A model generated the notes under the pieces. The model saw only the letters and a list, made by a program, of their open reading frames with translations, had not been told where the DNA came from and searched no databases. The position numbers and the translations under genes were made by a program. From positions 1,293,204-1,357,203 of the forward strand of contig NZ_JAPNKE010000002.1 in the NCBI RefSeq assembly GCF_026626665.1: 64,000 nucleotides of DNA, in the 5' to 3' direction. Of this stretch, positions 5,672-64,000 are shown piece by piece (position 1 is the first letter of the stretch; each line of letters starts with the position of its first letter). The DNA comes from Nannocystis pusilla (GTDB lineage Bacteria; Myxococcota_A; Polyangia; Nannocystales; Nannocystaceae).

Positions 5672-5751
5672 GCAGATGTCCGAGGGGACATGCTCGTGCG
5701 AGCATGTCCTCTTTTTCATGGCCCTACGGGCATGTCCTTTCGGGCATGTCC
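5672..5751. repeat. Six-unit 14-bp periodic array of RGACATGTCY palindromes
   Basis: Palindrome centres at 5676.5, 5690.5, 5704.5, 5718.5 (degenerate), 5732.5 and 5746.5. Units are cagATGTCC, GGACATGCTC, GAGCATGTCC, GGGCATGTCC x2. Confidence 0.85.
5686..5717 (+). terminator. Intrinsic terminator of blaR1: GGACATGCTCG-tg-CGAGCATGTCC followed by TCTTTTTC
   Basis: 11-bp perfect stem, short loop, T5 run, 27 nt after the blaR1 stop. The stem is built from array units. Confidence 0.75.
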
Positions 5752-5842
5752 GGCAGGCCGGGCGCGCTCGCGGCCTGCGGGGCGCGCGGCCGGAGATGCG
5801 CGGCCGCGCGGGTCGGCGCGGAGACCGAGCGCGGTCGCGCGG

Positions 5843-10447: not shown

Positions 10448-12637
10448 TCACTGCACCCCTGCGGTCAGCGTGTAGTTTCCGGCGCCGGAGTACGACGCTA
10501 CCGTATACGTGTAGTAGCCCGCGGTGCCGACGTAGGAGATCGACTCGCTCGACGTCGCGGTCTCGGACTTGGCGACCTGGGCCCACGCGCTGCCGTTCCA
10601 CTTGAGGAGGTACAGGTCGAAGTCCGTCCCGTTCGGCCCGGTCAGGCAGGCCTTGTGCGTCTTGGTCGCGGTCGTCTGATAGTACGAGCCGTTCGGCTGG
10701 GCCTGCTGGGCCCCCGCGCCGGACAGGGTGCCCTGGTATTGCGTGCCCGTGCAGCTCCCGCCGCCGCCACCGCCACCGCCGCTGCCCGGATCGCCAGGCA
10801 CGCCGACGGCCGTCCACGCCGCGTGGACCGCAGCGACCTCCGCCGAGGCGGCCCCGTGGATCGCCGTGGCCGCCTGGGCCGTCGCGTTGCGGGCGTCCTG
10901 GAAGGTCGCGGTGGACTGCAGATAGGTCACCAGGGCGTCGTAGAAGATCTTGCTCGCCTTGGTGATCCCGATCCCCGTGACGTTGTTGGCCGTCTTGCCG
11001 CGCGGGTGGACCCCGCCGGTGACCAGCAGCTTGAACGCCAGGTTGGCGATGCCCGAGTTCAGGTGCACGCCGCCGTTGTCCTGACTGCCCTGGTAGCGGG
11101 TCGGCCAATAGTCGTACGACTGCCCGTCCTTGATCGGGTCGTCCATGTAGCGCATCGCGTCGCCGGAGGTGGTCGGCGTCCACGACGCCTCGGCCAGCTT
11201 CCACGTGGCCGCCGAGACCACGCCGCCGGCCACGTGGGCCTGCACCGAGGCCGCCATGACGTCGGAGAAGGCCTCGTTGAGCGCGCCGGACTGGTTCTGG
11301 TAGACGAGGTTCGCCTCGTACTGGGTGACCGCGTGGGTCAGCTCGTGGGCGACGATGTCGAGGTCGCGCGCGAGCGACGAGAAGTACTGCCCGCTGCCGT
11401 CGCCGTAGACCATCTGCTGGCCGTTCCAGAACGCGTTGTCGTAGCCGACGCTGAAGTGCACCGACGAGTGGATCGTCGCGCCGGCGCCGTTGAACGAGTC
11501 GCGGCCGAACCGATCCTTGTAGAAGTTGTAGGTCGTGCCCGCGTAGGTGAAGGCGTCCTTGGCCGAGAGGTCGGCCGAGCTGCCCGGATTGGCGATCTCG
11601 GAGCCGGGCAGGCTCTCGCCCTTCTTGGCGTCGTAGACCTTGCGCACCAGCGCCCGGTGGTGCTGCGGGTGGCGCGTCACGAGCTCGCCGGTCCGGGCGT
11701 CGGCGAACACGAAGTCGCGCTCGGGCCCGTCGGCGCTGGTGTAGGTCACCTCGGCCATCCACGCGAGCGCCACCGAGTCCTCGGTGACCACATAGACGAG
11801 GTCGGGTGCGTCGGTGCTGGCCGCGTCGGCCGGGAGCCCGCTCAGCACCTTCGCCAGCGCCGCCTCGCCCTCGACCTCCGGCTCGCTCGCCAGGTCCTCG
11901 CCGGCGATGAACCGCCCGCTCACCGCGTGTACGCGCCCGCTGACCCCGTCGGCGTGAACCGTCAGCTCGCCGCCGACGACCGGCAGGTCGTGCAGGTACT
12001 GCTGGAACTTCACGTGGACCTGGCCAAGGTCGTCGCTCTTCACGCGCAGCGGCTCGAGGTCGGTCGCCGCGTGCATGCGGAACACCGGCGCGACATCCTG
12101 CAGGAACGTCTGCGCCGCCGCCCGCGGCTCGCCTTTCGGCAGGAACCCGAGGTCGCCCGCGACCAGCGACGGCACCCCGTCGCCCGCCGTCACGACCTGA
12201 TCGATCCGCGGCAGCCGCGACAGCGCCGCCCCCTGCGTCACCATCAGCGTGGTCGGCCGCCTCTTCGCCGCGTCGGCGACCATCTCGGCGTCGACCAGGA
12301 AGCTGTCACCCAGCTCGAGCCGCGCCGGGATCACGCCCCATGCCTCGCCGCGGCGCGCCAGCAGGTCCTGCAGCAGCGAGCGGCGCCCGTCCTCACCGAC
12401 CACGACGACCCTGGAGAAGTCGATCGGCCCGGCCGCGAACGAGAACCGCACCGCCTCCACCCCCAGGTCGAGCTCGAGCACGCCTGCCGCTCCGAGCCCC
12501 TCGAGATCCTCGGCGGTGACGATGCGCTCCGCCGTGGCGACATCATCTCCCGCTGCACCACCTCCTTCGTAGCAGGCCGACAGCAGGAAACACGAGACGA
12601 TCGACGAGACGACTCCAGCGGTACGAAGCATGCACAT
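10448..12637 (-). CDS. Secreted M4 (thermolysin/vibriolysin-like) zinc metalloprotease with a C-terminal PPC-like domain
   Basis: VAHELTHAV (HExxH), GALNEAFSD, signal peptide, 729 aa. The antisense ORF 10340..12769 is Arg-rich junk. Confidence 0.9.
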   Translation of the reverse strand: MCMLRTAGVVSSIVSCFLLSACYEGGGAAGDDVATAERIVTAEDLEGLGAAGVLELDLGVEAVRFSFAAGPIDFSRVVVVGEDGRRSLLQDLLARRGEAWGVIPARLELGDSFLVDAEMVADAAKRRPTTLMVTQGAALSRLPRIDQVVTAGDGVPSLVAGDLGFLPKGEPRAAAQTFLQDVAPVFRMHAATDLEPLRVKSDDLGQVHVKFQQYLHDLPVVGGELTVHADGVSGRVHAVSGRFIAGEDLASEPEVEGEAALAKVLSGLPADAASTDAPDLVYVVTEDSVALAWMAEVTYTSADGPERDFVFADARTGELVTRHPQHHRALVRKVYDAKKGESLPGSEIANPGSSADLSAKDAFTYAGTTYNFYKDRFGRDSFNGAGATIHSSVHFSVGYDNAFWNGQQMVYGDGSGQYFSSLARDLDIVAHELTHAVTQYEANLVYQNQSGALNEAFSDVMAASVQAHVAGGVVSAATWKLAEASWTPTTSGDAMRYMDDPIKDGQSYDYWPTRYQGSQDNGGVHLNSGIANLAFKLLVTGGVHPRGKTANNVTGIGITKASKIFYDALVTYLQSTATFQDARNATAQAATAIHGAASAEVAAVHAAWTAVGVPGDPGSGGGGGGGGSCTGTQYQGTLSGAGAQQAQPNGSYYQTTATKTHKACLTGPNGTDFDLYLLKWNGSAWAQVAKSETATSSESISYVGTAGYYTYTVASYSGAGNYTLTAGVQ

Positions 12638-12639
12638 TC

Positions 12640-13948
12640 CTCCTCCAGCGGGAATTCAGGGCCCATGCGAAATGGCCCTGTCCCGTGGAACATGTCCGAA
12701 GCACCCTTGCCCAGAGGCAAGGACGGGGTCAGCACGACCCCTATGACAGCAGCACCATACCAGAGGTGACCTGTATCCACAATCTCCCGCGCCGACCACG
12801 ACCCGGTGCAGGTCGCCCCGCGGGGCGACACGTCTCGGAGCGCGTGGCGGCCCGCTGCGAGCCAAATCTTCTGCGAAGGCGCCGGCCCCCGAGACGGCGC
12901 GCGCGCTCGGCCCCTCGCAGGGCCGGTGTGCGCTTGGCCGGGTGCTCGGCGAATGCGCAGGCCGGCAGTGGCCGTCGCGGGTCCGGGAGGTGCTCGGCGA
13001 ATGTGGGGCGGGGCCAGCACGGGCACGAACGGTCGGGGCTGCCGACCCCAGATGCGGGCTGAAGGCCGTAGGAAGCGGGCTCGGCCGTCGATCCTTCACG
13101 TCGATGCGCGTCGATACTTCGCCTCGCTCGCGCTCCACCTTTCTTCTCGGAGTGCTCGATGCGCGCGTACGACCCGAACGATCGGGCTATGCAGCCCGAT
13201 GAACGGGCACGGGCCGTCTGCGGGGAGCGAGAACTGCTTCGATTCGGCGGCGCGTTCGCCCTCGCTGTGCGACCGCCCCGGGAACGAGAGCGGCTCCACG
13301 TGGCTGTACCAGACATGCCCGAGAGCCCGTTGTGGCGCACCCAATGGGCGATGGCCTTCACCTCGACGGAACACGCGTCAATCTGCACGTCGTGGGGCGC
13401 GGCGAAGACGGTGGCGACTTGGATCGTCTCGCACGAGCGCGATCCGGGCATCCATAGTCGGGAGGATGATCGGGTCGGCGAGCTGCAGCGAATCGCGTGA
13501 CCGATTGCGGGCGTACCTGCTTTTCGTCCGCGGCGGATCGGCGACCTGAGTCTCCCACGAATCGATTCGACAGGGGGTCGACCGATAGCTTCGATTCGCG
13601 TCACGCCGCCGATCCCAGTAAGCCATCGCAGACGCGATCGTAGTTCGCGCGGGCGCGAACCTGCTCGCGGCCTCGCGGGCTGGCACAGTGGGCGGGCGGT
13701 GGCTCCGATCGGCGGCGAACTCGTACACCGCGCCGCGGCCGCAGCGCCGTCGGGTGATCTTGACATACAGGCGGGTCTCGTGGACAACCGACTCCGATGA
13801 TCGGAGGGCCGACCTTGCCATGAGGCAGGCGCTGTGACGCTCCTGCGTCATGGCACGGGAGTCTCTCCACATATGAGTACGGGGATTCGTCGACAGGCGG
13901 CCCCCCGCGGCGAGAGCTCGCAATCGCGGTCGCGCAAGGGAGGACCAG
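12640..13948. other. 1.3-kb stretch with no convincing CDS and slightly lower GC
   Basis: Direct repeat GGTGCTCGGCGAATG at about 12945 and 12990. Palindrome CGAATCGATTCG at about 13565, with TTCGATTCG repeats. Palindrome at 13818-13853. One short minus-frame peptide (ETIQVATVFAAPHDVQIDACSVEVKAIAHWVRHNGLSGMSG) looks protein-like. Confidence 0.4.
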
Positions 13949-15124
13949 GTGCTGAGTTACGAGAAGATGTTCCAGTCCTCGGCAGGACTTTTGGCCACGG
14001 TGGACGCGAGCGGCCACTTCCGCGCCCTGAATCCGACATGGGAGCGGATCCTCGGCTGGTCCCTCGACGAGCTGAGGAGCAAGCCGTTCATCGAGTTCGT
14101 CCATCCGAGCGACCGCGAGGCCACGCTCGCCGAGGTGGCCAATCTTCTCCAGGGCAACCCGGTCGAGCGGTTCGACAACCGCTACCTGTGCAAGGACGGC
14201 TCGTACAGGTGGCTCGGCTGGGCCGCGCGGGTGGACGAGGGGGACGAGCCGTCGGAGCAGCTCATCCATGCGACGGCGATCGACGTGACGCGCGAGCGGG
14301 AGCAGCTGGCGCAGCTCGAGCCCCGGCTGCAGGACGCCAAGGTCTACGAGAAGTTGTTCCGGGTCTCGGTGGGCCTCCTCGTCACCCTGGACTCGAACGG
14401 GTATTTCCGCCACGCCAATCCGTCGTGGGAGCGGCTCCTCGGCTGGAGCCCCGAGGAGATGACGGCGAGGCCGTTCATCGAGTTCGTCCATCCCGACGAC
14501 CGCCCGGCGACGGTCGCCGAGGCCGCGGCCCTGTTCGAGGGCAAGATGACCATCCGCTTCGACAACCGCTATCAATGCAAGGACGGCACCTACAAGTGGC
14601 TCGCCTGGACGGCCTACATGGACCCGAGCGAGGACGAGTCGACCCGGCTCGTGTACGGCACGGCCCATGACGTCACCTCGTACAAGGAGCTCCTCGGCGA
14701 GTTCGAGCGGACGCTCGCACGGCTCCGCGACACGATGGAGGCGATGTCGACGCCGTTCATCCCGATTACCGAGCGGATCGTGGTCATGCCGCTCGTGGGC
14801 CAGATGGACGCGGACCGGATCCATCAGGTGATGACCGTCGCGCTCGAAGGCGTGCAGTCGACCCACGTCCAGGTGGTCATCCTCGACGTGACGGGCTTGC
14901 GCGACCTCGACACTCGTGTGGCGCGCGCGCTGCTCGACACGGCCAAGGGGCTGCAGCTGCTCGGTGCACGGACGATCCTGACCGGAATCCGGCCGTCCCT
15001 CGCGCAGACGCTCGTCGGTCTCGGGCTCGACCTGGGCAGCATCGTCACCAAGGGGACCCTCCAGAGCGCGATCGCGTCGGCGCTGAAGAACGACCTGGCT
15101 TCGGGCAGGCCCGACCTCGTCTGA
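13949..15124 (+). CDS. PAS-PAS-STAS protein (RsbR/anti-sigma-antagonist-like sensor)
   Basis: Two PAS repeats (FIEFVHP..DR...) then STAS (FIPITERIVVMPLVGQMDADRIHQVMTVALEGVQ...VILDVTGL...LLGARTILTGIRPSLAQTLVGLGLDL). GTG at 13949 with AAGGGAGGA upstream. Confidence 0.8.
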   Translation: MLSYEKMFQSSAGLLATVDASGHFRALNPTWERILGWSLDELRSKPFIEFVHPSDREATLAEVANLLQGNPVERFDNRYLCKDGSYRWLGWAARVDEGDEPSEQLIHATAIDVTREREQLAQLEPRLQDAKVYEKLFRVSVGLLVTLDSNGYFRHANPSWERLLGWSPEEMTARPFIEFVHPDDRPATVAEAAALFEGKMTIRFDNRYQCKDGTYKWLAWTAYMDPSEDESTRLVYGTAHDVTSYKELLGEFERTLARLRDTMEAMSTPFIPITERIVVMPLVGQMDADRIHQVMTVALEGVQSTHVQVVILDVTGLRDLDTRVARALLDTAKGLQLLGARTILTGIRPSLAQTLVGLGLDLGSIVTKGTLQSAIASALKNDLASGRPDLV

Positions 15125-15159
15125 TCGCCCTGTACCGGCGATGTCCCGCGCTCGCGCGC

Positions 15160-15193
15160 GTTGACACGATCCGCGGAACGGGTGAACCATCGC
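15160..15193 (+). promoter_or_regulatory. Putative promoter TTGACA-N16-TGAACCAT upstream of 15196
   Basis: gcgTTGACAcgatccgcggaacgggTGAACCATcgcgcATG. The same TTGACA...TGAACCAT arrangement occurs at the marR promoter. Confidence 0.35.
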
Positions 15194-15195
15194 GC

Positions 15196-15540
15196 ATGGT
15201 TTGGGTCCCCGAGACTCACCTGTTCTCCTGCGCCGGATGCGACGAGCTGGTACGCGCCGCCGATCCGGTCTGTCCCCACTGCGGCGTGTCGCGGTCCCGC
15301 GCGGAGCGCACGGGCCCGTTGGCCGCGCTGGCCGCCGCTCTCGTGGTCTCCGCCTGTACCACCGGCCAGCCCGCATACGGCGGGCCTGACACCGATTCGG
15401 AGGGGACGGAGGTGACCCAGACGGACGCGACGACGACGGACACGGCGACGACGGGCGCGACGACGACGGACGCTACGGGCACGACGGCGCCGACGACGGG
15501 CACGGGCTCGGCGGCGACCACCGACGACACGACCGGGTAG
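15196..15540 (+). CDS. Small zinc-ribbon membrane protein with a Thr-rich tail
   Basis: CAGCDEL...CPHCG (CxxC...CxxC), one TM helix (LAALAAALVVSAC), TTTDTATTGATTTDATGT tail. Confidence 0.45.
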   Translation: MVWVPETHLFSCAGCDELVRAADPVCPHCGVSRSRAERTGPLAALAAALVVSACTTGQPAYGGPDTDSEGTEVTQTDATTTDTATTGATTTDATGTTAPTTGTGSAATTDDTTG

Positions 15541-16117
15541 CTGCGCACGGCGTCGATCGACCTCGTGCTTGTCGGCTGCGCATTCGCGACGCGCCGGGCG
15601 AGACCGTTTGCGCCACTCGCCGACTGCACGTCGAATGCAGCGTCGTACGAGGACCGGCGGACGACGTCGGTCCGGTGATTCGAGCAATCGAGTCACACGT
15701 CCTGAATGGACTGCCTCGCACCCTGGTGATTGTCACCCCACGGATCGGTCTCGCTCGGGATGTCCCGGAGGAACTCGCGACGGCCGCGGCCGAGGACGAC
15801 GTCTCCTCGCCCTTAGCTCGCGCTGCAACCCACTGTCGACGCGATGCGCCGAGTGATGCGCGCTACCGCGGGCCGTCATGCCACTGCAGAGGCCGTCGGA
15901 GGCCTCGCGCGTCGCCCACGGTTGCGCATGGCGGCCTCGTCGGTGGCGCGCTCGTTTGCCGTCTCGGGGGTCTGTTTATCGCCCGGTTCGAGGATTGGGC
16001 CGCCATGGCGAGCTCAGAGCGATGGCGGAAATTGCGCCCTGCAGTCGTGCCTCGCTCGGAGCGAGGCGGTGATTCCCTTCGCACGGTCGAAGGGCACCGC
16101 TGGCCGGTGAGTCTCCG

Positions 16118-16135
16118 CAAGAATCGTGATTCTTG
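16118..16135. promoter_or_regulatory. 18-bp palindrome CAAGAATCGTGATTCTTG about 45 bp upstream of the hybrid kinase start
   Basis: 8-bp perfect arms and an AT-rich island in GC-rich DNA. Candidate operator. Confidence 0.45.
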
Positions 16136-16177
16136 GGCGTGCCGCGGCTTCGGACCTCGGTGCGGTAATGGAGAGTC

Positions 16178-19100
16178 ATGGTGCTTGACTCGGATGTCTC
16201 CGCCGGCCGCTCGGGCAGGTTGCACGTGCTCGCCGGTGGCGGCGAGATGGGCGCGCGCATGCGGGAGATCGACTGGGCGAAGACGCCGCTCGGCCCCGTC
16301 GACGCCTGGCCGCAGAGCCTCAAGACCTGCGTGCGAATCATCCTGACCTCGCTCCAGCCGATGTTCGTCTGGTGGGGCGACGAGCTCATCAACCTGTACA
16401 ACGACGCCTACAAGTCGATCGTCGGCGGCAAGCACCCGGAGGCGCTCGGACAGCCCGCCTCCGTCGTGTGGCGCGAGATCTGGGATCAGGTCGGGCCGCG
16501 CGCCGCGTCGGCGATGCGCCTCAACGAGGGCACGTACGACGAGGCGCTGCTGCTGATCATGGAGCGCTACGGCTACCCGGAGGAGACGTACTACACGTTC
16601 TCCTACAGCCCGGTGCCGAACGACCAGGGCGGGACCGGCGGGATCATCTGCGCCAACACCGACGACACGCAGCGGATCATCGGTGAGCGCCAGCTCGCCC
16701 TGCTGCGCGAGCTGGCCGCCCGCACGACCGAGGCGCGCACGTGGGAAGAGGTGTGCGTCCGCGGCGCGGCGTCGCTGCAGACCAACCCGAAGGACCTGCC
16801 GTTCGCGCTGATCTACATCGCCGACGCCGACCGGCGCCGCGTGCAGCTGGCGGGGGCAGCCGGGCTCCCGCGCGGCCACGCCGGCGCGCCGGAGGTCGTG
16901 TCGACGCTCGAGGACTCGGTGTGGCCGTTCGCCGAGGCGCTGCACGGGCACGAGCGCGTCATCGAGATACCGCCTGTCCTCGGGGACATCCCCACCGGCG
17001 CCTGGCCGCGACCGCCGACGCACGCCGTCGCCCTGCCGATCGCCCCGTCGGGGGAGACCGGTCGCGCCGGGGTCTTGCTCGTCGGGCTGAGCCCGTTCCG
17101 CAAGCTCGACGACAACTACCGCGGCTTCTTGCAGCTGGTCGCCGGGCAGCTCGCGGCCAGCATCGCCAACGCGCAGGCCTACGAGGAGGAGCGGCGGCGG
17201 GCCGAGGCGCTCGCCGAGCTCGATCGCGCCAAGACGATCTTCTTCAGCAACGTCAGCCACGAGTTTCGCACGCCGCTGACGCTGATGCTCGGCCCGCTCG
17301 AGGACGCGCTCTCGGCGGCGAAGCGCCGGCTCGAGGGCGCCGACCTCGACACTGCGTACCGCAACGCCGTCCGCCTGCTCAAGCTCGTCAACGTGCTGCT
17401 CGACTTCTCGCGCATCGAGGCCGGGCGGATCCAGGCGTCGTACGAGCCGATCGATCTGTCGGCCCTGACGACCGACCTGGCGAGCGCGTTCCGCTCGGCC
17501 GTCGAGCGCGCCGGTCTCGTCTTCGACGTCGACTGTCCGCCGCTCTCCGAGCCGATCCACGTCGACCACGACATGTGGGAGAAGATCGTGCTCAACCTGC
17601 TGTCGAACGCGCTCAAGTTCACGTTCGAGGGCACGATCGCGGTCGCGCTGCGCCTGCGCGGCGACCAGGTCGAGCTGACCGTCCGCGACACCGGCACCGG
17701 CATCCCGGAGCACGAGCTGCCGCACCTGTTCCGGCGCTTTCATCGGGTCCAGGGCGCGCGCTCACGGACCCACGAGGGCTCGGGGATCGGGCTCGCGCTG
17801 GTCCACGAGCTCGTGCGCCTGCACGAAGGGACGATCCACGTCACCAGCGAGGTCGGCGTCGGCACGACGTTCACGGTGGCGATCCCACGCGGCCACGCGC
17901 ACCTGCCCGCGGAAAAGATCAACCTCCGCCGCACCCAGGTGTCGTCGGCCACCGGCGCGGCGCCGTACGTGCAGGAGGCGCTGCGCTGGCTGGCCGGCCC
18001 GCAGCAAGGCGACGACGACCTCGCCGCGGACGCGCTGGGGGCCGCCTCCGATCCGGCGCTCGAAGCCGGACCGCCGGCGCGGATCCTGCTCGCCGACGAC
18101 AACGCCGACATGCGCGACTACGTCGGCCGCGTGCTGCAGCAGCGGTGGATCGTCGACGCCGTCCCCGACGGCGCCGTCGCGCTCGCGGCGGCGCTGGAGC
18201 GCCCGCCCGACCTCGTCTTGACCGACGTCATGATGCCGAACCTCGACGGCTTCGGCCTGCTCCGCGCGCTGCGCGAGGACCCGCGCACGCGGCGGATCCC
18301 GGTGCTGATGCTGTCGGCGCGCGCAGGCGAGGAGTCGCGCGTCGAGGGCCTCGAGGCCGGCGCCGACGACTACCTCGTCAAGCCGTTCTCCGCGCGCGAG
18401 CTGGTCGCCCGCGTCGCCACTCACCTGCAGATCGCCCGCCTGCGCGCCGCCGCGGAGCGCGAGCGCGAGAAGCTGTACGACCTGTTCATGCAGGCGCCGG
18501 TGCCGATCGCCGTGTTCGTCGGTCGGGAGCACCGCTACGTGGTCGCCAACCCGCCGTACTGCGAGATGCTCGGGCGCCCGGAGCTGGTCGGCCAGACCGT
18601 GCGCGAGGCGTTCCCGGAGATCGGCGAGCACGCCATGATCACGTCGCTCGACACCGTGATGGCGACCGGTCGACCCGTCCACGTGTTCGAGCTCAACATC
18701 CCGGTCATGCGCCACGGCGTCATCCGGGACGCTTACTTCAACTACGTCGCGCAGCCGATCCGCGACCCGAGCGACGCGGTCACCGGGGCCATGGTCGTCG
18801 CCTTCGAGGTCACCGAGCAGGTGCTCGCGCGTCATCGCGTCGAGCGGCTCTCCGAGGAGCTGGCGCTGTCGAACAAGGAGCTCGACCAGTTCGCCTACGT
18901 CGCCTCGCACGACCTCAAGGCGCCGCTGCGGGGGATCGCCAGCCTGTCGCAGTGGATCGAGGAGGCGCTCGCCGACAAGATCGACGAGGAGTCGCAGCGG
19001 CACATGCACCTGCTGCGCAGGCGCGTGCTCCGGCTCGAGACGCTGATCGACGGGATCCTCCATTACTCGCGCGCCGGCCGCATGCGCGTCGACGCGGTCA

Positions 19101-45503: not shown

Positions 45504-45752
45504 TTATTGTAAGGACATGTCCCTTGATGCATGTCATGCGAATCCCGCCGTGCTCGGCGTCGTGAGCGGAGTGCCGGTGGTGAAAGTCCCGAGGGACAGG
45601 ACCGAACGAGCAGGCCATGCGGGCGCCCCGCGGAGCCCGCCGCGCGGCCACGCCGGTTTTTTGTCCTGAAGGACATCGTAGAGTTCATGTCACCGGCTGT
45701 CGGCGCGGCGGCGGACTTGCTGCTCTTTCGGTCATGCCCGATGGGGCATGTC
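45504..45752. repeat. Three short 14-bp periodic arrays (GGACATGTCC, TGTCCtgaaGGACAT, CATGcccgatggggCATGTCC) in a convergent intergenic region
   Basis: Centres at 45507.5/45521.5, 45661.5/45675.5 and 45734.5/45748.5. Confidence 0.7.
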
Positions 45753-54520: not shown

Positions 54521-56895
54521 GCGCCGGACCGCGCGGGCGCTGCGGACCCTGCTGCCGGTCTTGCTGTCGGCTTCGGCCTGCGCCCCGCGCGGGCCGACGA
54601 CCGCGGCGCCGGGTGCCCCGAAGGACATGTCCTCGGAGACATCCGGTGCGGCGGCGGTGGCGGCCTGCGACAAGCAGGCGAGCGCGGTCCAGGACGGGCT
54701 GGTGCGCCTGGCGGATCGCTACCTGTGGGAGGAGATCGAGCTGCTCGTCCAGGCTCACGCGGCGACCCGCGGCCGGCCCGACGCGGCTCGCTGCGCCGAG
54801 GCGACCCGCGCGGCGCTGACGACCGTGACGCTGCGCTGGGCCGAGCAGGGGGCCGAGTCGGGCGGGTCGCAGAGCCACGCGCTGGCCCGCCAGGCCTACG
54901 CGGCGCTGCGCCAGCACTTCCCCGCCGAGGCCGAGGCGCCGCTGCTGCACCACGCGATGGGCAAGCTCGAGTGGGCCCGCGCCGAGCGGCTGACGCTCGA
55001 GATCGGCGAGCGCACCCTGACCGACGAGGCGCTGCGCGAGGCCCACGCCCACCACCGCGCCGCCCTGGCCGGCGGGCTGCCGACCGAGCAGGCCGCCCGT
55101 TCGGCCCGCGCCCAGCTCGACGCGGTCCGCCGCGTGCGCGAGGGAGAGCCTGCTCGATGGGTCATGTCTGAACAGACATGTCTGCCGGATCCGCGGGGCC
55201 GCTGCATCGACCCGGTCCCGCGCGTCGCCCCCGGCGAGCTGACCGCCGGCGACCGCGAGTGGCTGGCCGCCTACGACGCCTTCCTCGCCGAGCCCGGGCT
55301 GCAGGGCACGCCCGAGGCCGGGCAGGTCGCGGTCGAGCGGGCCGAATTGCTGATGCGATACCGCCGCTGGGACGAGGCCGAGACGAGCCTGCGCGCCGTC
55401 ACCGGGCCGGCGCGCGAGCAGGCGCGGGTGCTGCTGGTCGGCCTGCTGCTGGCGCGCTGGATGGAGGCCGCCAGCGCCGGCGATCGCTCGGCCGCCCGCG
55501 TCGCCCTGGTCACCGCGGCTGTCGAGGTCGAGGCCGCCGGCGGGCCGCAGGTGGCCCAGGTGGCGGCGCTGCGGCGCGCGGCGCTGTGGGCCCAGGCCGA
55601 GGAGTCGGAGGCGGTCGGCGACGACGCCCGCTGCGGCGCGGCCTTCGAGGGGCTCTACGCCGACCTCGGCGCCGACATCCACGCGGCGGCCGAGGCGGCC
55701 GACGGCGCCGGTCGCTGCTACGAGCGCGCCGGCCTGACGCAGAAGGCGATCGACTGGCTCGAGCGCATGGCCGACGTCCACCGCGAGGACCCGCGGGCCC
55801 CCGACGCGGTGCTGCGGCTGGCCCGCTTGCACGAGCGGATCTTGAACGACGAGCAGGCCCGCGACCGCTACCTCGATCTGGTGGCCCGCGCCCCGCGGCA
55901 CCGCGCCGCCGCGACCGCCCGCCGCCGCTCGCTGATCTTGAGCCTGCGCGCCGGGACATTGCCCGAAGGACAGCTGGACGCGCTGATCCGCGGCCGCCCG
56001 GAGGAGCGCACGCTGGCGGCGGCGATCCAGTTCCGCGCGGTGTTCCGCCCCGGCGTCACGCCCGAGGCGGCCGAGAAGTACATCGAGCGGTTCGGCAAGG
56101 AGGGCGGGCCGCGGCGGCTGGCGATCGCCCACGCGCGCGCGGCCGAGGCGTGGCTGCGCGCGTCCTGCCCGGTCCCCGGGGCCGAGGGCCTGTGCGTCGA
56201 ATTCGGCCGCGACCGCACGCCTGCGCGGGTGGTCGCGCGCCTGCCAGCCGCACGCCAAGGGCCGCGAGCACCTCGACCGCGCGCAGAAGTTGTTGCCCGA
56301 GGTCAGCGGCGGCGAGGTCGACAAGCTCGAGGCGCCGATCGCCGTCGACGCCGACGAGGCGCGCGTCGCCAGCCGCCAGGTCGCGCTGCTGCAGGGCGAC
56401 CTCGACGCCGAGTCGGCGCTCACCAGCCAGCCGCCGAAGAGCCTCGACCCGGCCCGCTCGCGCGCGTGGCTCGAGGTCCGCAAGGCCGAGGTCGAGCGCA
56501 TGAGCGCGGTCTACGAGACCGCCACCGCGGGCGGGACCGGCGGCCGCGATCAGTCGGCGGCGCTGGTCGAGACCCGCAAGGCGCAGGTGTACGAGTCCGA
56601 CCTGGCGCTGCTCGACGAGGTGGGCGCCGCCGTCGAGGCCGCCGGCGACGCCGGCCTGGCCCAGCAGATGCGCGAGCTGGCGGCCCAGCGCCGCGAGGCG
56701 GTGTTCACCGCGTACGCCCGCTGCCTCGACCACGTGGCCGCGTGGGGCCACGACGCCGGGGGCCAGAGCGCGCTGTGCCGCGCCGGCCTCGGCCGCCTGG
56801 TCGGTCGCTACGAGGAGCCGCTGGAGTACGCGCCCGACCACGACGGGCGGGTGATCGTCGGCGCGGCGGCCCGAGCGTCGGGCCCTCCGCGGTGA
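54507..56895 (+). CDS. Secreted TPR-like repeat protein co-transcribed with the kinase. Frameshift (one extra C) near 56245.
   Basis: MARRERRTARALRTLLPVLLSASAC signal. Helical-repeat body in the 54507 frame up to ...ARVVAR, then ...HAKGREHLDRAQKLLPEVSGGEVDKLEAPIAVDADEARV... in the 56290 frame to the stop at 56895. Confidence 0.6.
54624..54645 (+). repeat. Intragenic 2-unit array (GGACATGTCC + GAGACATCC, 14-bp phased) in the signal-peptide coding region of the TPR gene
   Basis: Centres at 54627.5 and 54641.5. Encodes KDMSSETS. Confidence 0.6.
55161..55182 (+). repeat. Intragenic perfect palindrome CATGTCTGaaCAGACATG (two 14-bp phased units) inside the TPR gene
   Basis: Centres at 55164.5 and 55178.5. 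Encodes VMSEQTCL. Confidence 0.6.
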
Positions 56896-56937
56896 GGCTG
56901 AGCCGCCGCGGGCGACGCGCTGAGGCGAGCATTTACG

Positions 56938-57016
56938 GACATGCTCGAACGATCATGTCTCCAAGAGCATGTCGGATAGAGACTGCCTGAAAGAGCATGT
57001 CCCGTGAGACATGCCC
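56938..57016. repeat. Six-unit 14-bp periodic array (GGACATGCTC, ATCATGTCTC, GAGCATGTCG, degenerate, GAGCATGTCC, AGACATGCCC)
   Basis: Centres at 56941.5, 56955.5, 56969.5, 56983.5 (degenerate), 56997.5 and 57011.5. Lies between convergent TPR genes. Confidence 0.85.
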
Positions 57017-58574: not shown

Positions 58575-59966
58575 ATGTACCGTATGGACATGCAGCACGC
58601 GCACGCGGTCTTGGTCCTCGCGCTCGCGCTCACTGCCGCGTGCCTCTCCAGCTACTATCAGCCGCCTGCCGAGGGCGCGACGGCCGACGAGGGGCTCACG
58701 ACGACGAGCACGAGCAGCACGAGCACCGGCAGCCCCGAGGTTGCGACGGGACCGAAGTTCGACATTCCGTACCCCGATCTCCCCGATCCCGCGTGCGAGC
58801 AGCAGCCGCTCGCCGCCGATTGCGAGCCCTCGTGCGTCTCCGGCTGGACCGCCGCCGCCGAGGTGTGCGACGTCGAACCGTTCACCGCGCCGGCGCCGTT
58901 CTACCCGCTGCTGGTCGATTGCTCGTGCAGTGACAGCGTCGACGTCGTCCTCGTCGACCTGGATCACGACGGCTTCGACGACATCGTCAGCGCCTGCTCC
59001 TACGAGTCGCGCGCAGTGGTCCACTACGGCGGCAGCCAGCGGCCGCTGGCGTGCCCTGTCGAGCACGCCGTCCTCTCGTCCCCCTCGTCGGTCGCCGTCG
59101 CCGACTTCGACATGGACGGGCATCTCGACATCCTCGCGGGGGGCGACGACTTCGGCGGGGGAGGGGCGCTCTTCAGTCTGCTTCGCGGCCGCGGCGGACG
59201 CAGCTTCGGTCCGCAAGAGCTCGTACTCGCTCCGGAGCTTCCCTCGACCTCTCGTCTCACGGCCGCCGACCTCGACGCCGACGGCGACCCCGACCTGATC
59301 GCGCACGACTCTGGTATCGCGCAGGTGCTCCTGGGAGACGGGCTCGGCGGCTTCGTGCCGGGCCAGACGATCACCTTGCCCCCGACTTGCCGCATCGACT
59401 CGTCGGACGACCTCGACGGTGACGCCCTCGTCGACCTGGTCCGGGCGTGTTCCGAGGACGGCGGCGTCCAGTTTCATCGCGGCGACGGCCACGGCGGTTT
59501 CGCCGATCCGGCGCCGCTCGTCGCCAGCGACCAGTGGATCGAGGCGCTGACCATCGCCGACCTCGACGGCGACCTGAGACGCGACCTCGTCCTGCTCCGC
59601 GAGACCGACATCGCTATCGCCATCGCCGTCGCCCCCGGCGAATACGGCCCGCTCGAGCCGATCGGCCCGGCGTTCGTCGGTCAAGCGATCGCCGCCGTCG
59701 ACCTCGACGGCGAGGACGGCCTGCTCGAGATCCTGGTCCACGGCACCGACTACAACAACCCCGAGCATCAGACCGCCCGTACGCGCCTGCTCACCGGCGA
59801 CCCCCAGCAGGGCTTCACTCTGACCGCCACGCTCGTCCACGCCCAGCAAGTGCTGTCGCCGCACTTCGGCGACTTCAACGGCGACGGCCGCCTCGACCTC
59901 GTGTTCGGCCACTATCTCTCGGCGTACAACGACGGCGGCATCTACTACCTGGAGAGCGCGCCATGA
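58575..59966 (+). CDS. FG-GAP/VCBS repeat lipoprotein (integrin-alpha-like beta-propeller)
   Basis: MYRMDMQHAHAVLVLALALTAAC. Repeated xDxDGDGxxDL motifs (DFDMDGHLDIL, ADLDADGDPDLI, ADLDGDLRRDLVLL, GDFNGDGRLDLVF). Confidence 0.75.
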   Translation: MYRMDMQHAHAVLVLALALTAACLSSYYQPPAEGATADEGLTTTSTSSTSTGSPEVATGPKFDIPYPDLPDPACEQQPLAADCEPSCVSGWTAAAEVCDVEPFTAPAPFYPLLVDCSCSDSVDVVLVDLDHDGFDDIVSACSYESRAVVHYGGSQRPLACPVEHAVLSSPSSVAVADFDMDGHLDILAGGDDFGGGGALFSLLRGRGGRSFGPQELVLAPELPSTSRLTAADLDADGDPDLIAHDSGIAQVLLGDGLGGFVPGQTITLPPTCRIDSSDDLDGDALVDLVRACSEDGGVQFHRGDGHGGFADPAPLVASDQWIEALTIADLDGDLRRDLVLLRETDIAIAIAVAPGEYGPLEPIGPAFVGQAIAAVDLDGEDGLLEILVHGTDYNNPEHQTARTRLLTGDPQQGFTLTATLVHAQQVLSPHFGDFNGDGRLDLVFGHYLSAYNDGGIYYLESAP

Positions 59967-61132
59967 AGCGCCGCGGCGTCCTCGCCCTCGCGCTCGTCGC
60001 CTGCACACCCGCGCCGCTCGCGGGCGACTCCGACGGCTCCACGTCGACCGCCTTCGGGCCGGTCGAGCCGGGCACGAGCAGCGCCGCCAGCACGACGACC
60101 GACCCTCTCGACGACGCACCCGCCGAGATCGACCTCGGCGTCGTCGCCGACGGCTTCGCGTTGCTCGACCTCGACGAGGACGGGCACATCGACCTCGTCA
60201 CCAGCGCTTACACCACCGCGGTCCAGCTGCTTCGCGGTCGTGGCGACGGCAGCTTCGACGCGCCGATCGGCCTCGGTGACGGCTTCGACTCGTATGCGAG
60301 CGCGGTCGTCGGCGGGGACTTCGACGGCGACGGCGCCCGCGACCTCGCGGTCCTTTGGAGCGCACACCTCGTCCTGCTCCGCGATCCGCTGCACGGGCCG
60401 CACGAGGCGCTCCACGCCCCCTCCGCCGGTGTCGCCGCCGCGCGCGGCGACGCCGACGCCGACGGCCTCGACGACCTGTTCTTGGCCGGCGGGAACGTAC
60501 TTGACCGCCTCCATGGAGATGCCAGCGGGGTCTTCGATCTGCGGCCGCCGCTGGGTCTGGGGGGCGAGCCGGTCGACATCGTCGCCGCCGACCTCGACGC
60601 TGACGGCGCCGTTGACATCGTCACCGCCAACGTCGGCACCGACGACCTCAGCCTGCTCCGCGGCGACGGTCTCGGCGGCTTTCTCCCGCAGACGCTGCTG
60701 CCCGTCGGCGACCAGCCGTTCGCCGTCGCCGTCGCCGACCTCGACGTCGATGGCACCCTCGACCTCGTGGTCTTGCACGTCGGCGGGCTCGTCACGCTGC
60801 GCGGCCTCGGCGGCAGCGCCTTCGCTGCGCCTCACGGCATCGCGCTTCCCGAGCACTACAGCCGGCACGAAGCGAGCTTTGCCGTGTGCGAGCTCGACGG
60901 CGACGAGCGCCCCGAGATCGTCGTGACGCGCGACTTCAACGGGTACGGCTGGCTCACCCGGTTCGAGGTCGCCGAAGACACCCGGGTCATCGAGCCGAAG
61001 GTCCTCCGGAGCGGCCGAGGGGTGGGGCGGATCGTCTGCGCCGACCTCGACGGCGACGATCGCGACGACCTCGTCTTCGACGCCTTCCGCCCCGGCGGCT
61101 CCACGCTTCACCTCCTGAGGTCGTCGCCATGA
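59963..61132 (+). CDS. Second FG-GAP/VCBS repeat lipoprotein (ATGA overlap with the first)
   Basis: MKRRGVLALALVAC. LDLDEDGHIDLV, GDFDGDGARDLAV, ADLDADGAVDIV, ADLDVDGTLDLVV, ADLDGDDRDDLVF. Confidence 0.75.
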   Translation: MKRRGVLALALVACTPAPLAGDSDGSTSTAFGPVEPGTSSAASTTTDPLDDAPAEIDLGVVADGFALLDLDEDGHIDLVTSAYTTAVQLLRGRGDGSFDAPIGLGDGFDSYASAVVGGDFDGDGARDLAVLWSAHLVLLRDPLHGPHEALHAPSAGVAAARGDADADGLDDLFLAGGNVLDRLHGDASGVFDLRPPLGLGGEPVDIVAADLDADGAVDIVTANVGTDDLSLLRGDGLGGFLPQTLLPVGDQPFAVAVADLDVDGTLDLVVLHVGGLVTLRGLGGSAFAAPHGIALPEHYSRHEASFAVCELDGDERPEIVVTRDFNGYGWLTRFEVAEDTRVIEPKVLRSGRGVGRIVCADLDGDDRDDLVFDAFRPGGSTLHLLRSSP

Positions 61133-61337
61133 ACGAACGCGCCAGCGCCGAGTCGTCGCGGAGGCCCGTACGGATATGACAATGAACTTTGGGACATGTA
61201 CCGTCATTCTTGGCGATTCGCCGCTCCCCGCGCCGGCGGCGGTCCCGCCGTGAGCAGAGGCCGATCTACGGCGAATGTCGACACCCTGAATAGGCGGATC
61301 CGACGCGCGTCCGTGCGCACCGAGGTTTTTAAAAGAA

Positions 61338-61835
61338 ATGCCCAAGCTCATCCTGACCCTGTTGGCGCTCCTCTTCAGCGTGACCGGTTGCAGCTTCACG
61401 CTCTCGTCGCACGGCGGTTGGGGGTCGGAGGGGCCCGCGCCGCGGATGGCCGGCCGCGGCTACGGCTGGGCCTCCGCGGGCGACCCGGGCCTGCACGGCC
61501 GCGGCAAGCCGGCCCGCCGCGTCGACGCCAGCGAGCGCCCCGCGACGAAGCCGGCCGGTGCGGCGCCGCAGAAGGCGAAGCAGCCGGCGATCGCCTGGGC
61601 GGGCGAGGTGCCGAAGAAAGCAAAGAAGCCGGCGATCACGTGGGCGGGCGAGGTGCCGAAGAAAGCGAAGAAGCCGGCGATCACGTGGGCGGGCGAGGCG
61701 CCGAAGAAGGCGAAGCAGCCGGCGATCACGTGGGCCGGGAAGGTGCCGCCGAAGCGGACGAAGCAGCCGAGAAAGCCCGCCGACGAGCGGCCGGCGATCA
61801 CGTGGGCCGGCACGGTCCCGCCGCGCCCGCAATGA
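61338..61835 (+). CDS. Lipoprotein with five 15-aa tandem repeats (PKKAKKPAITWAGEV)
   Basis: MPKLILTLLALLFSVTGC lipobox. 45-bp DNA repeats at about 61591-61800. Lower GC than neighbours. Followed by a strong intrinsic terminator. Confidence 0.7.
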   Translation: MPKLILTLLALLFSVTGCSFTLSSHGGWGSEGPAPRMAGRGYGWASAGDPGLHGRGKPARRVDASERPATKPAGAAPQKAKQPAIAWAGEVPKKAKKPAITWAGEVPKKAKKPAITWAGEAPKKAKQPAITWAGKVPPKRTKQPRKPADERPAITWAGTVPPRPQ

Positions 61836-61882
61836 GGTCGAGCAGGCGCGGCGCCCGAGACGCACGCCGAACCTGCTCACAC

Positions 61883-61914
61883 GGCCATGTCCATGAGGAC
61901 ATGGCCGTTTTTTC
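61883..61914 (+). terminator. Intrinsic terminator GGCCATGTCC-atga-GGACATGGCC + GTTTTTT
   Basis: Perfect 10-bp stem, 4-nt loop, T6 run, 48 nt after the stop at 61835. The stem is an ATGTCC-N4-GGACAT unit of the 14-bp family. A further GGACATGTCC lies at 61957-61966. Confidence 0.8.
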
Positions 61915-62004
61915 GTGCGCCAGCGAAGGCGCCTCGCGCTCGCCGCCTGGCCGAACGGACATGTCCTCGCGGACCGCCGCGGCGCGGCGCTCGCCGGCTC
62001 CGCG

Positions 62005-62907
62005 TCACGGCCTGGTCGGCTGCGGATCCCAGGCCGTGAGGGCCCGGTAGAAGACCTCCGGATCCAGTAGCGGCGGCAGGCCGGCGACCTGGCCGTCGCC
62101 GAGCTCGATCGCGGTCCAACCTCCGGCCGCTCGCTCGGCGAGGTCGAGGCTGAAGAAGCGGCTCGGCACGCGGCGGGCGAGGTCGGCGAACTCGGGCGGC
62201 GCGACCTCGTCGGCGATCTCCCACGCCGGCGCCTCGACGAGCGGGCGTCCGTCGGCGATGAACCGCCGCCATTCGCGGGGCAGGGGCATCCCGCTCCTCG
62301 GGTGGTTCCCGAGCGGCACCAGCGGCTCGTAGGCCCGGAAGACCAGGCCGCCGACGAGGTCGTCGCCCTGTCGATCGAGGAAGTTGCCGACCACGCGACG
62401 GACCTCGGCGACGTCGTCGGCCGCGCGGATGAAGCACGCGTCGTTCCACTCGTGCTTGCGCGACTTGACGTAGTCCTTGACGACGAGCGCGCGCCCGCCG
62501 AAGCGCGCCAGTGCGGCCTCGATCCGTGACCCGTGCAGGCCGTCCTCGCGCGGCAGCACCACGGTCTCCGGCGTGTCGTCCGCGAGGTGCGGCAGCGCGG
62601 CGGGCAGCAGGTGCGCGCTGCGATAGGCCGCGGGGTCGTTGACGAGCTGCAGGCCGCGCGCGCCGAGGCCGGCGTGCAGCGCGTCGTAGGCCGCCAGCGG
62701 CAACATCCAGCCGCGGTAGACCGCGACCTCGACGGCCTCGCTCGCCCGGACCCGACGCAGCGCAGCGCCGACGTCTCCTGCGACCAGGGCCTCGAAGTCG
62801 ACGCACGACCACGCGACGCCGACCGCGTCGGCGGCCGCGACCTCGGGCGCGAACGCGCGATCGGGATGGCGCTCGAGCAGCGGGTCGGTGCAGAACAGTA
62901 CGCGCAT
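62005..62907 (-). CDS. ATP-grasp domain-containing protein
   Basis: 300 aa. ...GRALVVKDYVKSRKHEWNDACFIRAADDVAEVRRVVGNFLD... resembles the uncharacterised ATP-grasp (DUF4343-like) family. Confidence 0.6.
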   Translation of the reverse strand: MRVLFCTDPLLERHPDRAFAPEVAAADAVGVAWSCVDFEALVAGDVGAALRRVRASEAVEVAVYRGWMLPLAAYDALHAGLGARGLQLVNDPAAYRSAHLLPAALPHLADDTPETVVLPREDGLHGSRIEAALARFGGRALVVKDYVKSRKHEWNDACFIRAADDVAEVRRVVGNFLDRQGDDLVGGLVFRAYEPLVPLGNHPRSGMPLPREWRRFIADGRPLVEAPAWEIADEVAPPEFADLARRVPSRFFSLDLAERAAGGWTAIELGDGQVAGLPPLLDPEVFYRALTAWDPQPTRP

Positions 62908-63007
62908 GCGGGCATCCTAGCGGGCGTCGGCGCGCGCGGCAGGACCTTCCGCTGCAGGCCCCGTGCGCGACATCGGCCGGCAACAGCCAGTACACCGCTC
63001 TGTTACG

Positions 63008-64000
63008 ATGGCGCGTCCGGGGGGTGGAAGGGGTTTGATCGCCAACTTGGTCTCGGCGCTGACGGGTAACGCGGCGCTGTTCACGTTCACCGCCTCCGCG
63101 GGCGATCTCGAAGTCATCCGCTTCGCCGGCTTCGAGGCGGTCTCGTCGCTGTTCGAGCTGCGCATCGAGCTCGCGGGCCCCGAGATCGACCTCGCGGCAT
63201 TGGTCGACAAACCGGCCCTGCTGACGATCGGCGGCGTCGAGTCGCCGCGCCAGATCCACGGCCTCGTGTGCGGCGCCGAGTACAGCGGCGAGCTGCGCCA
63301 GCACCACGTCTACGAGGTGACCTTCGTGCCGCGGGTGTGGCGGCTGACGCGGCGCCAGGACAGCCGGATCTTCCAGCGCAAGACGACGCAGAAGATCGTC
63401 GGCGAGGTGCTCGAGAAGGCCGGGATCCCGCGCGACTGGTTCCGCTTCGACCTGTTCGCCTCGTACAACCCGCGCGACTACTGCGTGCAGTACCGCGAGT
63501 CGGACTGGGACTTCGTCAGCCGGCTGCTCGAGGAGGACGGCATCTACTATTACTTCGAGCACAGCGCCGAGAAGCACGTGCTCGTGATGAGCGACAAGCC
63601 CGGCGCGCCGGCGATCGCGGGCCCGCAGGAGGTGTGGTGGGCCCCGCCGCACGGGTTCGTGCGCGGGCAGGAGCACATCACCCGCTTCCGCCTGCTCGAG
63701 GGCGTGCGCACCGGCAAGTCATCCCTGCGCGACCACAACCTCCACAAGCCCGACCAGCAGATGGACGCCAGCGAGTCGGCGCAGCTGGCCACCGACCTCG
63801 AGGTCTACGACTTCCCCGGCGAGTACCAGGAGAGCGGCGGGCGCACCTCGGATCAGGGCGCCGGCCTGGCGAAGATCCGGCTCGAGGCGATGCAGCACGA
63901 CCGCCGCCGCGGCCTCGGCGAGAGCGACTGCCCGCGGCTCGTGCCCGGCTACTCGTTCACGCAGGCCGGCCACCAGCGCGGCGACCTCGACGGCGACTAC
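63008..64000 (+). CDS. vgrG: Type VI secretion system VgrG (TssI), 5' partial; runs off the window end
   Basis: MARPGGGRGLIANLVSALTGNAALFTFTASAGDLEVIRFAGFEAVSSLFELRIELAG...RIFQRKTTQKIVGEVLEKAGI...YCVQYRESDWDFVSRLLEEDGIYYYFEH. Open to the last base. Not in the ORF track because no stop falls inside the window. Confidence 0.8.
   Translation, partial: MARPGGGRGLIANLVSALTGNAALFTFTASAGDLEVIRFAGFEAVSSLFELRIELAGPEIDLAALVDKPALLTIGGVESPRQIHGLVCGAEYSGELRQHHVYEVTFVPRVWRLTRRQDSRIFQRKTTQKIVGEVLEKAGIPRDWFRFDLFASYNPRDYCVQYRESDWDFVSRLLEEDGIYYYFEHSAEKHVLVMSDKPGAPAIAGPQEVWWAPPHGFVRGQEHITRFRLLEGVRTGKSSLRDHNLHKPDQQMDASESAQLATDLEVYDFPGEYQESGGRTSDQGAGLAKIRLEAMQHDRRRGLGESDCPRLVPGYSFTQAGHQRGDLDGDY

Follow-up and report, generated by a model that had tools for sequence, protein, structure and literature searches.

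Vibrio cholerae-type auxiliary clusters of a type VI secretion system (T6SS) encode the spike protein VgrG together with the DUF4123 adaptor Tap-1/TEC, an effector and an immunity protein, and an auxiliary vgrG cassette of this sort is a very common arrangement. Nannocystis pusilla is a predatory, social soil myxobacterium. Here we analysed a stretch of 64,000 nucleotides from this species (assembly GCF_026626665.1, contig NZ_JAPNKE010000002.1, positions 1,293,204 to 1,357,203 of the forward strand; the whole stretch is called the window below), which very probably ends inside the first gene, vgrG, of an orphan (auxiliary) T6SS cargo operon.

T6SS genes have been reported in Nannocystales (PMC10196010, PMC5801462). 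A second vgrG cluster has been reported in Nannocystis exedens, in which the counterpart of the Myxococcus xanthus vgrG2 operon has a PAAR-fused effector (both PMC5801462). DUF4123 serves as an effector marker (PMC7714669). The cassette at the window edge is an ordinary, well-known kind of orphan T6SS weapon cassette, and it was correctly read as such in the original prediction, which had been made from the letters of the window with no database search. The window itself changes little; the modest value lies just outside it, in an uncharacterised effector family.

The vgrG fragment and the genes beyond the edge

The element from which the analysis starts is the following.
63035 to 64000, plus strand: 5' part of vgrG/tssI, the T6SS spike gene (322 codons, gp27-like hub domain), cut by the window end.

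The open reading frame (ORF) runs uninterrupted from about 63008/63035 through the last base, 64000, and on the strength of its domain matches it encodes, beyond reasonable doubt, the N-terminus of a VgrG protein. Pfam PF05954 (Phage_GPD) matched residues 43-331 of the ORF with 276.1 bits, and two T6SS-specific NCBIfam models scored above their cutoffs, TIGR03361 with 256.8 bits (curated cutoff 186.35) and TIGR01646 with 189.9 bits (cutoff 121.8). The closest database proteins in a word-indexed protein search were all named VgrG, the best being 78% identical. Scanning a single genome for each species yielded four syntenic Nannocystis loci (n = 4), in which the amino acid identity to the fragment was 98% (RBIL2), 94% (N. 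punicea), 88% (N. radixulma) and 88% (N. bainbridge). DNA identity between the window and its relatives was 95-96% over most of the last 12 kilobases (kb), and the ratio of nonsynonymous to synonymous substitution rates (dN/dS) of the vgrG fragment was 0.10-0.35, indicating purifying selection.

The original prediction of a 5'-partial vgrG open to the last base held, with a different start from the ATG at 63008 that it had proposed. In the five-genome alignment, the in-frame TTG at 63035 is kept in 5/5 genomes; a purine-rich, Shine-Dalgarno-like GGTGGAAGGGG stands just ahead of it at 63023-63033. The ATG at 63008 is an unlikely start because its frame contains a TAG in N. radixulma and because the ATG itself is out of frame in N. 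bainbridge. Translation thus probably begins at TTG 63035.

The orthologous VgrG proteins of the four Nannocystis genomes are 709 residues long from the TTG (718 codons counted from the ATG), and judged by these orthologues about 387 vgrG codons are missing from the window. The RBIL2 orthologue carries both of the expected distal domains, Phage_base_V (55.4 bits, the gp5 OB fold) and Gp5_trimer_C (95.7 bits, C-terminal trimerisation). An early end of the frame with no gp5-like domain and no T6SS genes elsewhere had been named as what would speak against a VgrG; the full-length orthologues with their gp5 domains, together with a core T6SS cluster in a Nannocystis sp. metagenome-assembled genome (MAG), point the other way. 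None of the VgrG orthologues in the four genomes carries a fused toxin, a possibility that had also been raised; each is a plain canonical spike, and the effector is a separate protein.

The gene order after vgrG in the four relatives is PAAR, effector, Imm72/Imm71 and FHA-DUF4123, followed by an unrelated HAMP histidine kinase, and the cassette is syntenic in these four Nannocystis genomes plus one further locus (L019). The PAAR protein has 208 residues including a C-terminal extension, the effector has about 467 residues and no Pfam domain, the immunity protein has 294 residues and matches both Imm72 and Imm71, and the chaperone-type protein of about 299 residues joins an FHA/YscD-like N-terminus to a DUF4123 adaptor domain.

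Three lines of evidence tie this order to the source strain. N. pusilla MCY1005132.1 exactly matches the ATP-grasp protein encoded next to vgrG in the window; on the same 11.95-Mb contig, the effector, MCY1005135.1, follows three accession numbers on. A 2.1-kb Logan contig from run ERR2215891 is 100% identical to window positions 61669-63821 and encodes the same ATP-grasp protein. A second contig from that run, ERR2215891_748 (L027), begins 15 nucleotides before the PAAR start, right after the vgrG stop position, and is 95.5% identical to RBIL2 12158-17673. It encodes PAAR (79 bits), the 467-residue effector, a protein of the Imm72/Imm71 kind and an FHA-DUF4123 fusion (DUF4123, 87.8 bits). Its immunity protein scored 36.7 bits for Imm72 (cutoff 25) and 24.5 bits for Imm71, just below the cutoff of 27; by these matches the gene after the effector is assigned to the Imm71/Imm72 immunity proteins. 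From accession order and synteny, we infer that vgrG continues from 64000 to the PAAR gene in the source strain. Judged by gene content, vgrG thus appears in association with PAAR, adaptor and effector-immunity genes: those that had been predicted to lie just past the edge, DUF4123, PAAR and immunity genes among them, were found both on the same-run contig and in the four syntenic genomes.

The N. radixulma cassette (L004:12790-18148) differs from that of RBIL2. The effectors are 61% and the immunity proteins 52% identical, against 90-91% for VgrG and PAAR, and N. radixulma has an extra Tle1-like phospholipase gene (PF09994, 68 bits) after the DUF4123 gene, with two small ORFs ahead of it. On these sequence comparisons, the cassette cargo is polymorphic between Nannocystis species, with far quicker divergence in the effector-immunity pair than in the spike.

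A Pfam scan of 42 proteins called from the rest of the window returned 53 families, of which 25 were listed. These included sensor kinases, a thermolysin-like protease, molybdopterin dehydrogenase, S1/P1 nuclease, hydrolases, a Ser/Thr kinase and FG-GAP proteins, and no core T6SS family was among the 25. A core T6SS cluster is excluded from the rest of the window, a lone small component not strictly so. In the relatives, the downstream 10 kb likewise held no core T6SS genes. Since the other 62 kb of the window show no core genes, the vgrG module is therefore orphan or auxiliary, and the core lies elsewhere in the genome, if it is present at all.

One Nannocystis sp. MAG (GCA_016714285.1) has a vgrG 54% identical to that of the window, among genes for TssM, TssL, TssK, TssJ, FHA, PAAR-Rhs, TssG and TssF. 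In this core cluster, two vgrG genes stand side by side, both seemingly broken by the gene caller into a GPD and a gp5 part; two FHA proteins and a PAAR-Rhs effector with a CdiI_5-like immunity protein are encoded there too.

The effector family and its predicted fold

Searches with the effector returned 223 homologues (E ≤ 1 × 10−3) from Nannocystis and other Myxococcota, Fibrobacteria, Chitinispirillaceae, Burkholderia, Yersinia and Enterobacter. Wherever a source names a listed homologue, the name is "hypothetical protein". No Pfam toxin domain was found among the 120 homologues listed, one of which has only a fused Hcp match, and a Pfam scan of 39 sampled members likewise found no toxin domain, only a sub-threshold DUF4112-like match at the N-terminus and Hcp in one fused member. 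The effector had no match in PADLOC, and the Pfam TNT model gave no HMMER match to the family.

Genomic contexts and one Hcp fusion support the family as T6SS effectors. The Enterobacter homologue is part of a core T6SS cluster, with vgrG on one side of it and an Imm71/72 gene on the other. Two or three tandem Imm72 genes come after the homologue in two metagenomic lineages. An Imm72 gene thus stands 3' of the effector in all distant contexts checked (Enterobacter and the two metagenomic lineages). In one protein of 766 residues, P0182 (L025:7001-12374), an Hcp domain is fused N-terminally to the effector homologue, and three tandem Imm72 genes follow as an immunity array.

Residues 115-202 of the Nannocystis PAAR protein (L002:12515-12799) are 48% identical (E = 5 × 10−25) to an N-terminal extension of the longer effector homologues, which are P0146, P0168, P0169, P0171, P0172, P0174 and P0182. 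No Pfam model covers this shared domain. By sequence similarity, certain lineages have this adaptor domain joined to PAAR, and others have it joined to the effector or to a fusion of Hcp and effector; because the domain is split off in one case and fused in the other, the PAAR protein and the effector can be argued to interact physically. The DUF4123 protein presumably assists in loading the effector.

In the family alignment, the N-terminal region is rich in invariant positions, with two hydrophobic helices and the DUF4112-like similarity, and the middle region is long and helical. The C-terminal domain carries the invariants FSG, R305, W318, WR330, G361, Q366, Q378, GG and Q386. Of these, R305, R330, Q366, Q378 and Q386 would be compatible with the TNT-like NADase family. 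The AlphaFold2 model of the effector has a mean predicted local distance difference test (pLDDT) score of 74.9, with values above 90 across the C-terminal domain. Foldseek matches of this model are TNT-like NAD(P)+ glycohydrolases (NADases), headed in the PDB by the toxin domain of Tse6 (probability 1.00, E = 0.015). As modelled, the C-terminal domain has the palm-domain fold of the TNT-like NAD(P)+ glycohydrolases (Tne1/Tse6, Tne2 and TNT), and we put the effector being an NADase at somewhat better than an even chance. The wider proposal, to which we give slightly less than even confidence, is that the cargo belongs to a T6SS effector family, uncharacterised and of wide distribution, which makes up one more group of TNT-like NAD(P)+ glycohydrolases, unrelated in sequence to the others, with Imm71/72 as its dedicated immunity family, and that the 2012 assignment to the BECR RNases needs revising.

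The cassette might then work as follows. A VgrG trimer would sit on the Hcp tube of a T6SS whose genes lie at another place in the genome, with the PAAR protein sharpening the tip. The DUF4123 chaperone would load the effector on the VgrG/PAAR tip, probably via the C-terminal extension of PAAR that is fused to the effector in other lineages, and sheath contraction would inject the spike-effector complex into a neighbouring cell. The two N-terminal hydrophobic helices of the effector may aid its crossing of the target inner membrane, after which the TNT/Tne2-like C-terminal domain would hydrolyse NAD(P)+ and arrest growth, while the Imm71/72 protein would protect sibling cells.

Several observations weigh against an orphan T6SS operon with an NADase cargo. 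On the side of the operon, codons 323-709 of vgrG, about 1.16 kb between the window end and the same-run contig, are unseen in the source strain, and the other 62 kb of the window yielded no core T6SS family, as described above. On the side of the enzyme, NADase activity is predicted from the modelled fold alone; phmmer and profile searches of the PDB with the effector showed no similarity to any NADase there, giving chance matches only (E ≥ 0.04); the Foldseek E value of 0.015 is weak; and the predicted template modelling (pTM) score of the whole model is 0.44. Zhang et al. 2012 (PMC3482391), moreover, list Imm71/72 as immunity proteins to Ntox48, a predicted BECR-fold RNase with conserved R, [RK], Q, Q. 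In the literature searched, this was the only paper to mention Imm71, Imm72 or Ntox48, and no experimental paper on them was found.

Three other explanations were weighed on this evidence. If the listing of both Imm71 and Imm72 beside Ntox48 is taken at face value, the C-terminal domain would be a BECR-fold RNase and not an NADase, and its invariant R305, R330, Q366 and Q378/Q386 do resemble the Ntox48 signature. The residue pattern fits Ntox48, but the predicted fold does not, and we consider the RNase assignment unlikely. Regarding the spike itself, the best Pfam match, PF05954, also covers phage baseplate hubs, and the lack of T6SS core genes within 62 kb would suit a gpD/gp27-like hub of a phage or of an extracellular contractile injection system. 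Such a hub is extremely unlikely here: the scores of both T6SS-specific models lie above the curated cutoffs, VgrG is the name of all the closest database proteins, and the genes alongside encode PAAR, DUF4123 and an effector-immunity pair but no tail, sheath or tape-measure protein of a phage. The isolation of the module from any core cluster, together with the degeneration of T6SS gene sets in some myxobacteria (PMC10196010), might instead mark it as a decaying remnant that has no working secretion apparatus. This too is very unlikely, as the ORFs are intact in five species, dN/dS is low, and the GC content at third codon positions (GC3) is 0.97-0.98, typical of expressed genes. The faster divergence of the N. 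radixulma effector-immunity pair (61% and 52%) than of VgrG (91%) is what is expected of an actively used polymorphic toxin, and the core cluster in the Nannocystis sp. MAG looks complete.

We therefore keep to an orphan T6SS cassette with a possible NADase cargo. The Tne2-like predicted fold and the invariable Imm72 partner give a testable hypothesis, that of a new Tne group of NADase toxins, and from the same data the Imm71/72 immunity families gain a candidate function. If this is true, the in silico assignment of the Imm71/72 partners as BECR RNases, made in 2012, would be revised.

Neighbouring genes and genomic surroundings

Upstream of vgrG, the following features were delimited.
62908 to 63034, no strand: divergent spacer of 127 base pairs (bp) between the ATP-grasp gene and vgrG, from the five-genome alignment.
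62005 to 62907, minus strand: gene for an R2K.3 ATP-grasp enzyme of 300 residues (PF14243 (R2K_3), PF18299, ExGD motif).
61837 to 61914, plus strand: double hairpin with a U6 tract, resembling an intrinsic terminator, located between convergent genes on the 3' side of the lipoprotein gene.
61565 to 61748, plus strand: array of 4.1 copies of a 45-bp tandem repeat (Tandem Repeats Finder score 284, 89% matches, no indels).
61338 to 61835, plus strand: gene for a lineage-restricted lipoprotein of 165 residues (ORF, lipobox, five basic 15-residue repeats containing PAI(T/A)WAG, KKAKKPAITWAGEVP).

The gene on the strand opposite vgrG is, as had been predicted, that of an ATP-grasp protein. PF14243 matched with 110.8 bits (cutoff 26.3) over model positions 8-169 of 169, PF18299 matched with 47.8 bits, and the ExGD motif reads IELGDG (in TAIELGDGQV). 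An ExGD in place of ExN, in the last strand, is the signature of R2K.3 (Burroughs et al. 2015, PMC4431377), and on this motif and the Pfam matches we assign the gene to that family. Its product is a predicted peptide ligase.

The ATP-grasp gene adjoins vgrG divergently in 5/5 Nannocystis genomes. Within the spacer, two blocks are invariant in the five species, TGCGCGACATCGGCCGG at 62964-62980 and CTCTGTTACGATG at 62998-63010, and the remaining spacer varies. The invariant blocks are candidate promoter or operator elements, for which we infer a regulatory role. A sigma-70 consensus scan of 60900-64000 gave no matches, a result that is uninformative in a myxobacterium of 72% GC, and no sigma-54 -24/-12 element was found by eye in the conserved blocks.

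The product of the gene at 61338-61835 is classed as a bacterial lipoprotein on its sequence, which has a signal peptide and a lipobox, MPKLILTLLALLFSVTG followed by C (LLFSVTG-C), that is invariant in the five genomes and agrees with the pattern [LVI][ASTVI][GAS]C. The protein is conserved in the five Nannocystis genomes with 5-7 repeats. It had no match in Pfam, NCBIfam or PADLOC, and its relatives at E ≤ 1 × 10−10 comprised only 5 cluster representatives among 1.84 billion. The gene is a neighbour by synteny and not a demonstrable T6SS component.

Of two properties ascribed to this gene in the original prediction, one was not borne out and the other only in part. The gene does encode a lipoprotein with 45-bp tandem repeats, but it is not low in GC: sliding windows across it read 0.71-0.77, equal to or above its neighbours, and the intergenic region 61100-61399 alone dips, to 0.62. 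Of the hairpin terminators said to bracket the gene, the one at the 3' side is well supported: its 12-bp stem (61881-61908) is perfect and runs into TTTTTT, and the minimum free energy for 61837-61914 is -50.3 kcal/mol (z = -5.47, with 0/200 shuffles as good). The spacer upstream of the gene is no more stable than its shuffled versions (z = +1.5 and -0.1), and only the downstream structure qualifies as an intrinsic terminator.

The palindrome GGACATGTCC occurs at 45513, 52020, 54623 and 61957, 4 copies against 0.08 expected. Its half-sites, CATGTCC/GGACATG, cluster at 5686-5755, 56937-57010 and 61886-61966, in intergenic spacers and at gene 3' ends, and the stem of the lipoprotein terminator is built from them. 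The palindrome may be a genus-specific element of the repetitive extragenic palindrome (REP) kind or a terminator element.

Further upstream, a pair of FG-GAP/VCBS-repeat genes (58584-59966 and 59963-61132, plus strand; Pfam FG-GAP_3 113 and 101 bits) encodes proteins with lipobox-like N-termini. RBIL2, N. punicea and N. radixulma lack the pair at the syntenic position; it forms a strain-specific insertion of about 3 kb between a TPR gene and the lipoprotein gene, and its GC3 is slightly lower, 0.90-0.91. A second variable spot lies between the lipoprotein and ATP-grasp genes, where three relatives have an extra gene for 257-377 residues (L002:7842-8930, L003:7791-8924 and L004:7735-8808, all minus strand) with no Pfam or PADLOC match, which is missing from the window and from N. 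bainbridge. The large ORF at 54600-56895 (plus strand, about 765 residues) is syntenic with genes for 746-796 residues in the relatives, is very high in GC and has no Pfam match. The window contains no tRNA genes, and no integrase or transposase families are among the top Pfam families listed.

Two further readings concern this upstream region. The divergent adjacency in five Nannocystis genomes, with invariant blocks in the shared spacer, and the occurrence of a sister family, R2K.1, at polymorphic-toxin loci of the T6SS (Burroughs et al. 2015, PMC4431377) could suggest that the R2K.3 enzyme is a functional T6SS accessory. It might, for example, attach peptide tags to the spike, the effector or the immunity protein, in line with the proposal for the bacterial CDC123/R2K.1 proteins of T6SS loci. 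We consider this improbable. The five genomes all belong to one genus, so plain synteny may explain the adjacency; 3/3 homologues inspected outside the genus sit in unrelated contexts (beside a fatty-acid desaturase and a sigma factor, beside NRPS and MbtH genes, and beside a peptidase M15); the gene is found at 0/13 more distant vgrG loci; and R2K.3 has been tied to GNAT, R2K.2 and ARG genes rather than to the T6SS (PMC4431377). A functional link between the ATP-grasp gene and vgrG was rejected as unsupported; the gene probably stands outside the T6SS module, as a neighbour by synteny whose linkage is confined to the genus. The other reading, put forward tentatively in the original prediction as an accessory island boundary, is that the segment borders a genomic island of recent acquisition that holds the T6SS cargo. 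The strain-specific indels flanking the lipoprotein gene (the 3-kb FG-GAP pair and the extra gene in three relatives) and the slightly lower GC across vgrG (0.68-0.70 against 0.72-0.80) lend it weak support. The block of ATP-grasp, vgrG, PAAR, effector, immunity, DUF4123 and kinase genes nevertheless occupies the same locus in five species, the lower GC stems from codon position 2 with GC3 at a normal 0.97-0.98, and tRNA genes and listed mobility families are lacking, which together make a recent island quite unlikely.

Comparison with described systems

The nearest myxobacterial parallel is the vgrG2-tsxE-tsxI operon of M. xanthus (Troselj et al. 2018, PMC5801462). Both are orphan myxobacterial vgrG genes with an effector-immunity pair, the M. 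xanthus operon lying away from the 13-gene core cluster, and orthologous clusters contain FHA-domain genes, as the Nannocystis cassette does. The VgrG paralogues differ, and TsxE is an amidohydrolase-2/LysM protein (PMC5801462), whereas the Nannocystis cargo comprises a separate PAAR protein, an effector with hydrophobic helices and a predicted TNT-like fold, Imm71/72 and an FHA-DUF4123 fusion.

With Vibrio cholerae-type clusters, the cassette shares an auxiliary vgrG and a DUF4123 adaptor encoded together with cargo effector and immunity genes. In Nannocystis, by contrast, the DUF4123 gene comes last, after the immunity gene, and its domain is fused to an N-terminal FHA/YscD-like domain.

The bacterial CDC123/R2K.1 genes in T6SS loci (PMC4431377) are alike in that an R2K-clade ATP-grasp gene stands beside vgrG/PAAR. 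The window gene is of the R2K.3 family with ExGD, is divergently transcribed, and has homologues elsewhere that are not linked to the T6SS.

Compared with the NADase effectors Tse6 (Tne1)-Tsi6 of Pseudomonas, Tne2-Tni2 of P. protegens and Rhs1-CT of Serratia (PMC10539506), the Nannocystis effector has no detectable sequence similarity, and its NADase activity is predicted only. Its PAAR protein is separate and not fused, its chaperone is DUF4123 and not Eag/DUF1795, and its immunity protein is Imm71/72 and not Tsi6, Tni2 or RhsI. The Ntox48-Imm71/Imm72 pairs (PMC3482391) share with the cassette the Imm72/Imm71 matches, the R, R/K, Q, Q residues and the association with the T6SS. Ntox48 is a predicted BECR RNase and no model matched the effector, whereas the Nannocystis structural model resembles a TNT-like NADase.

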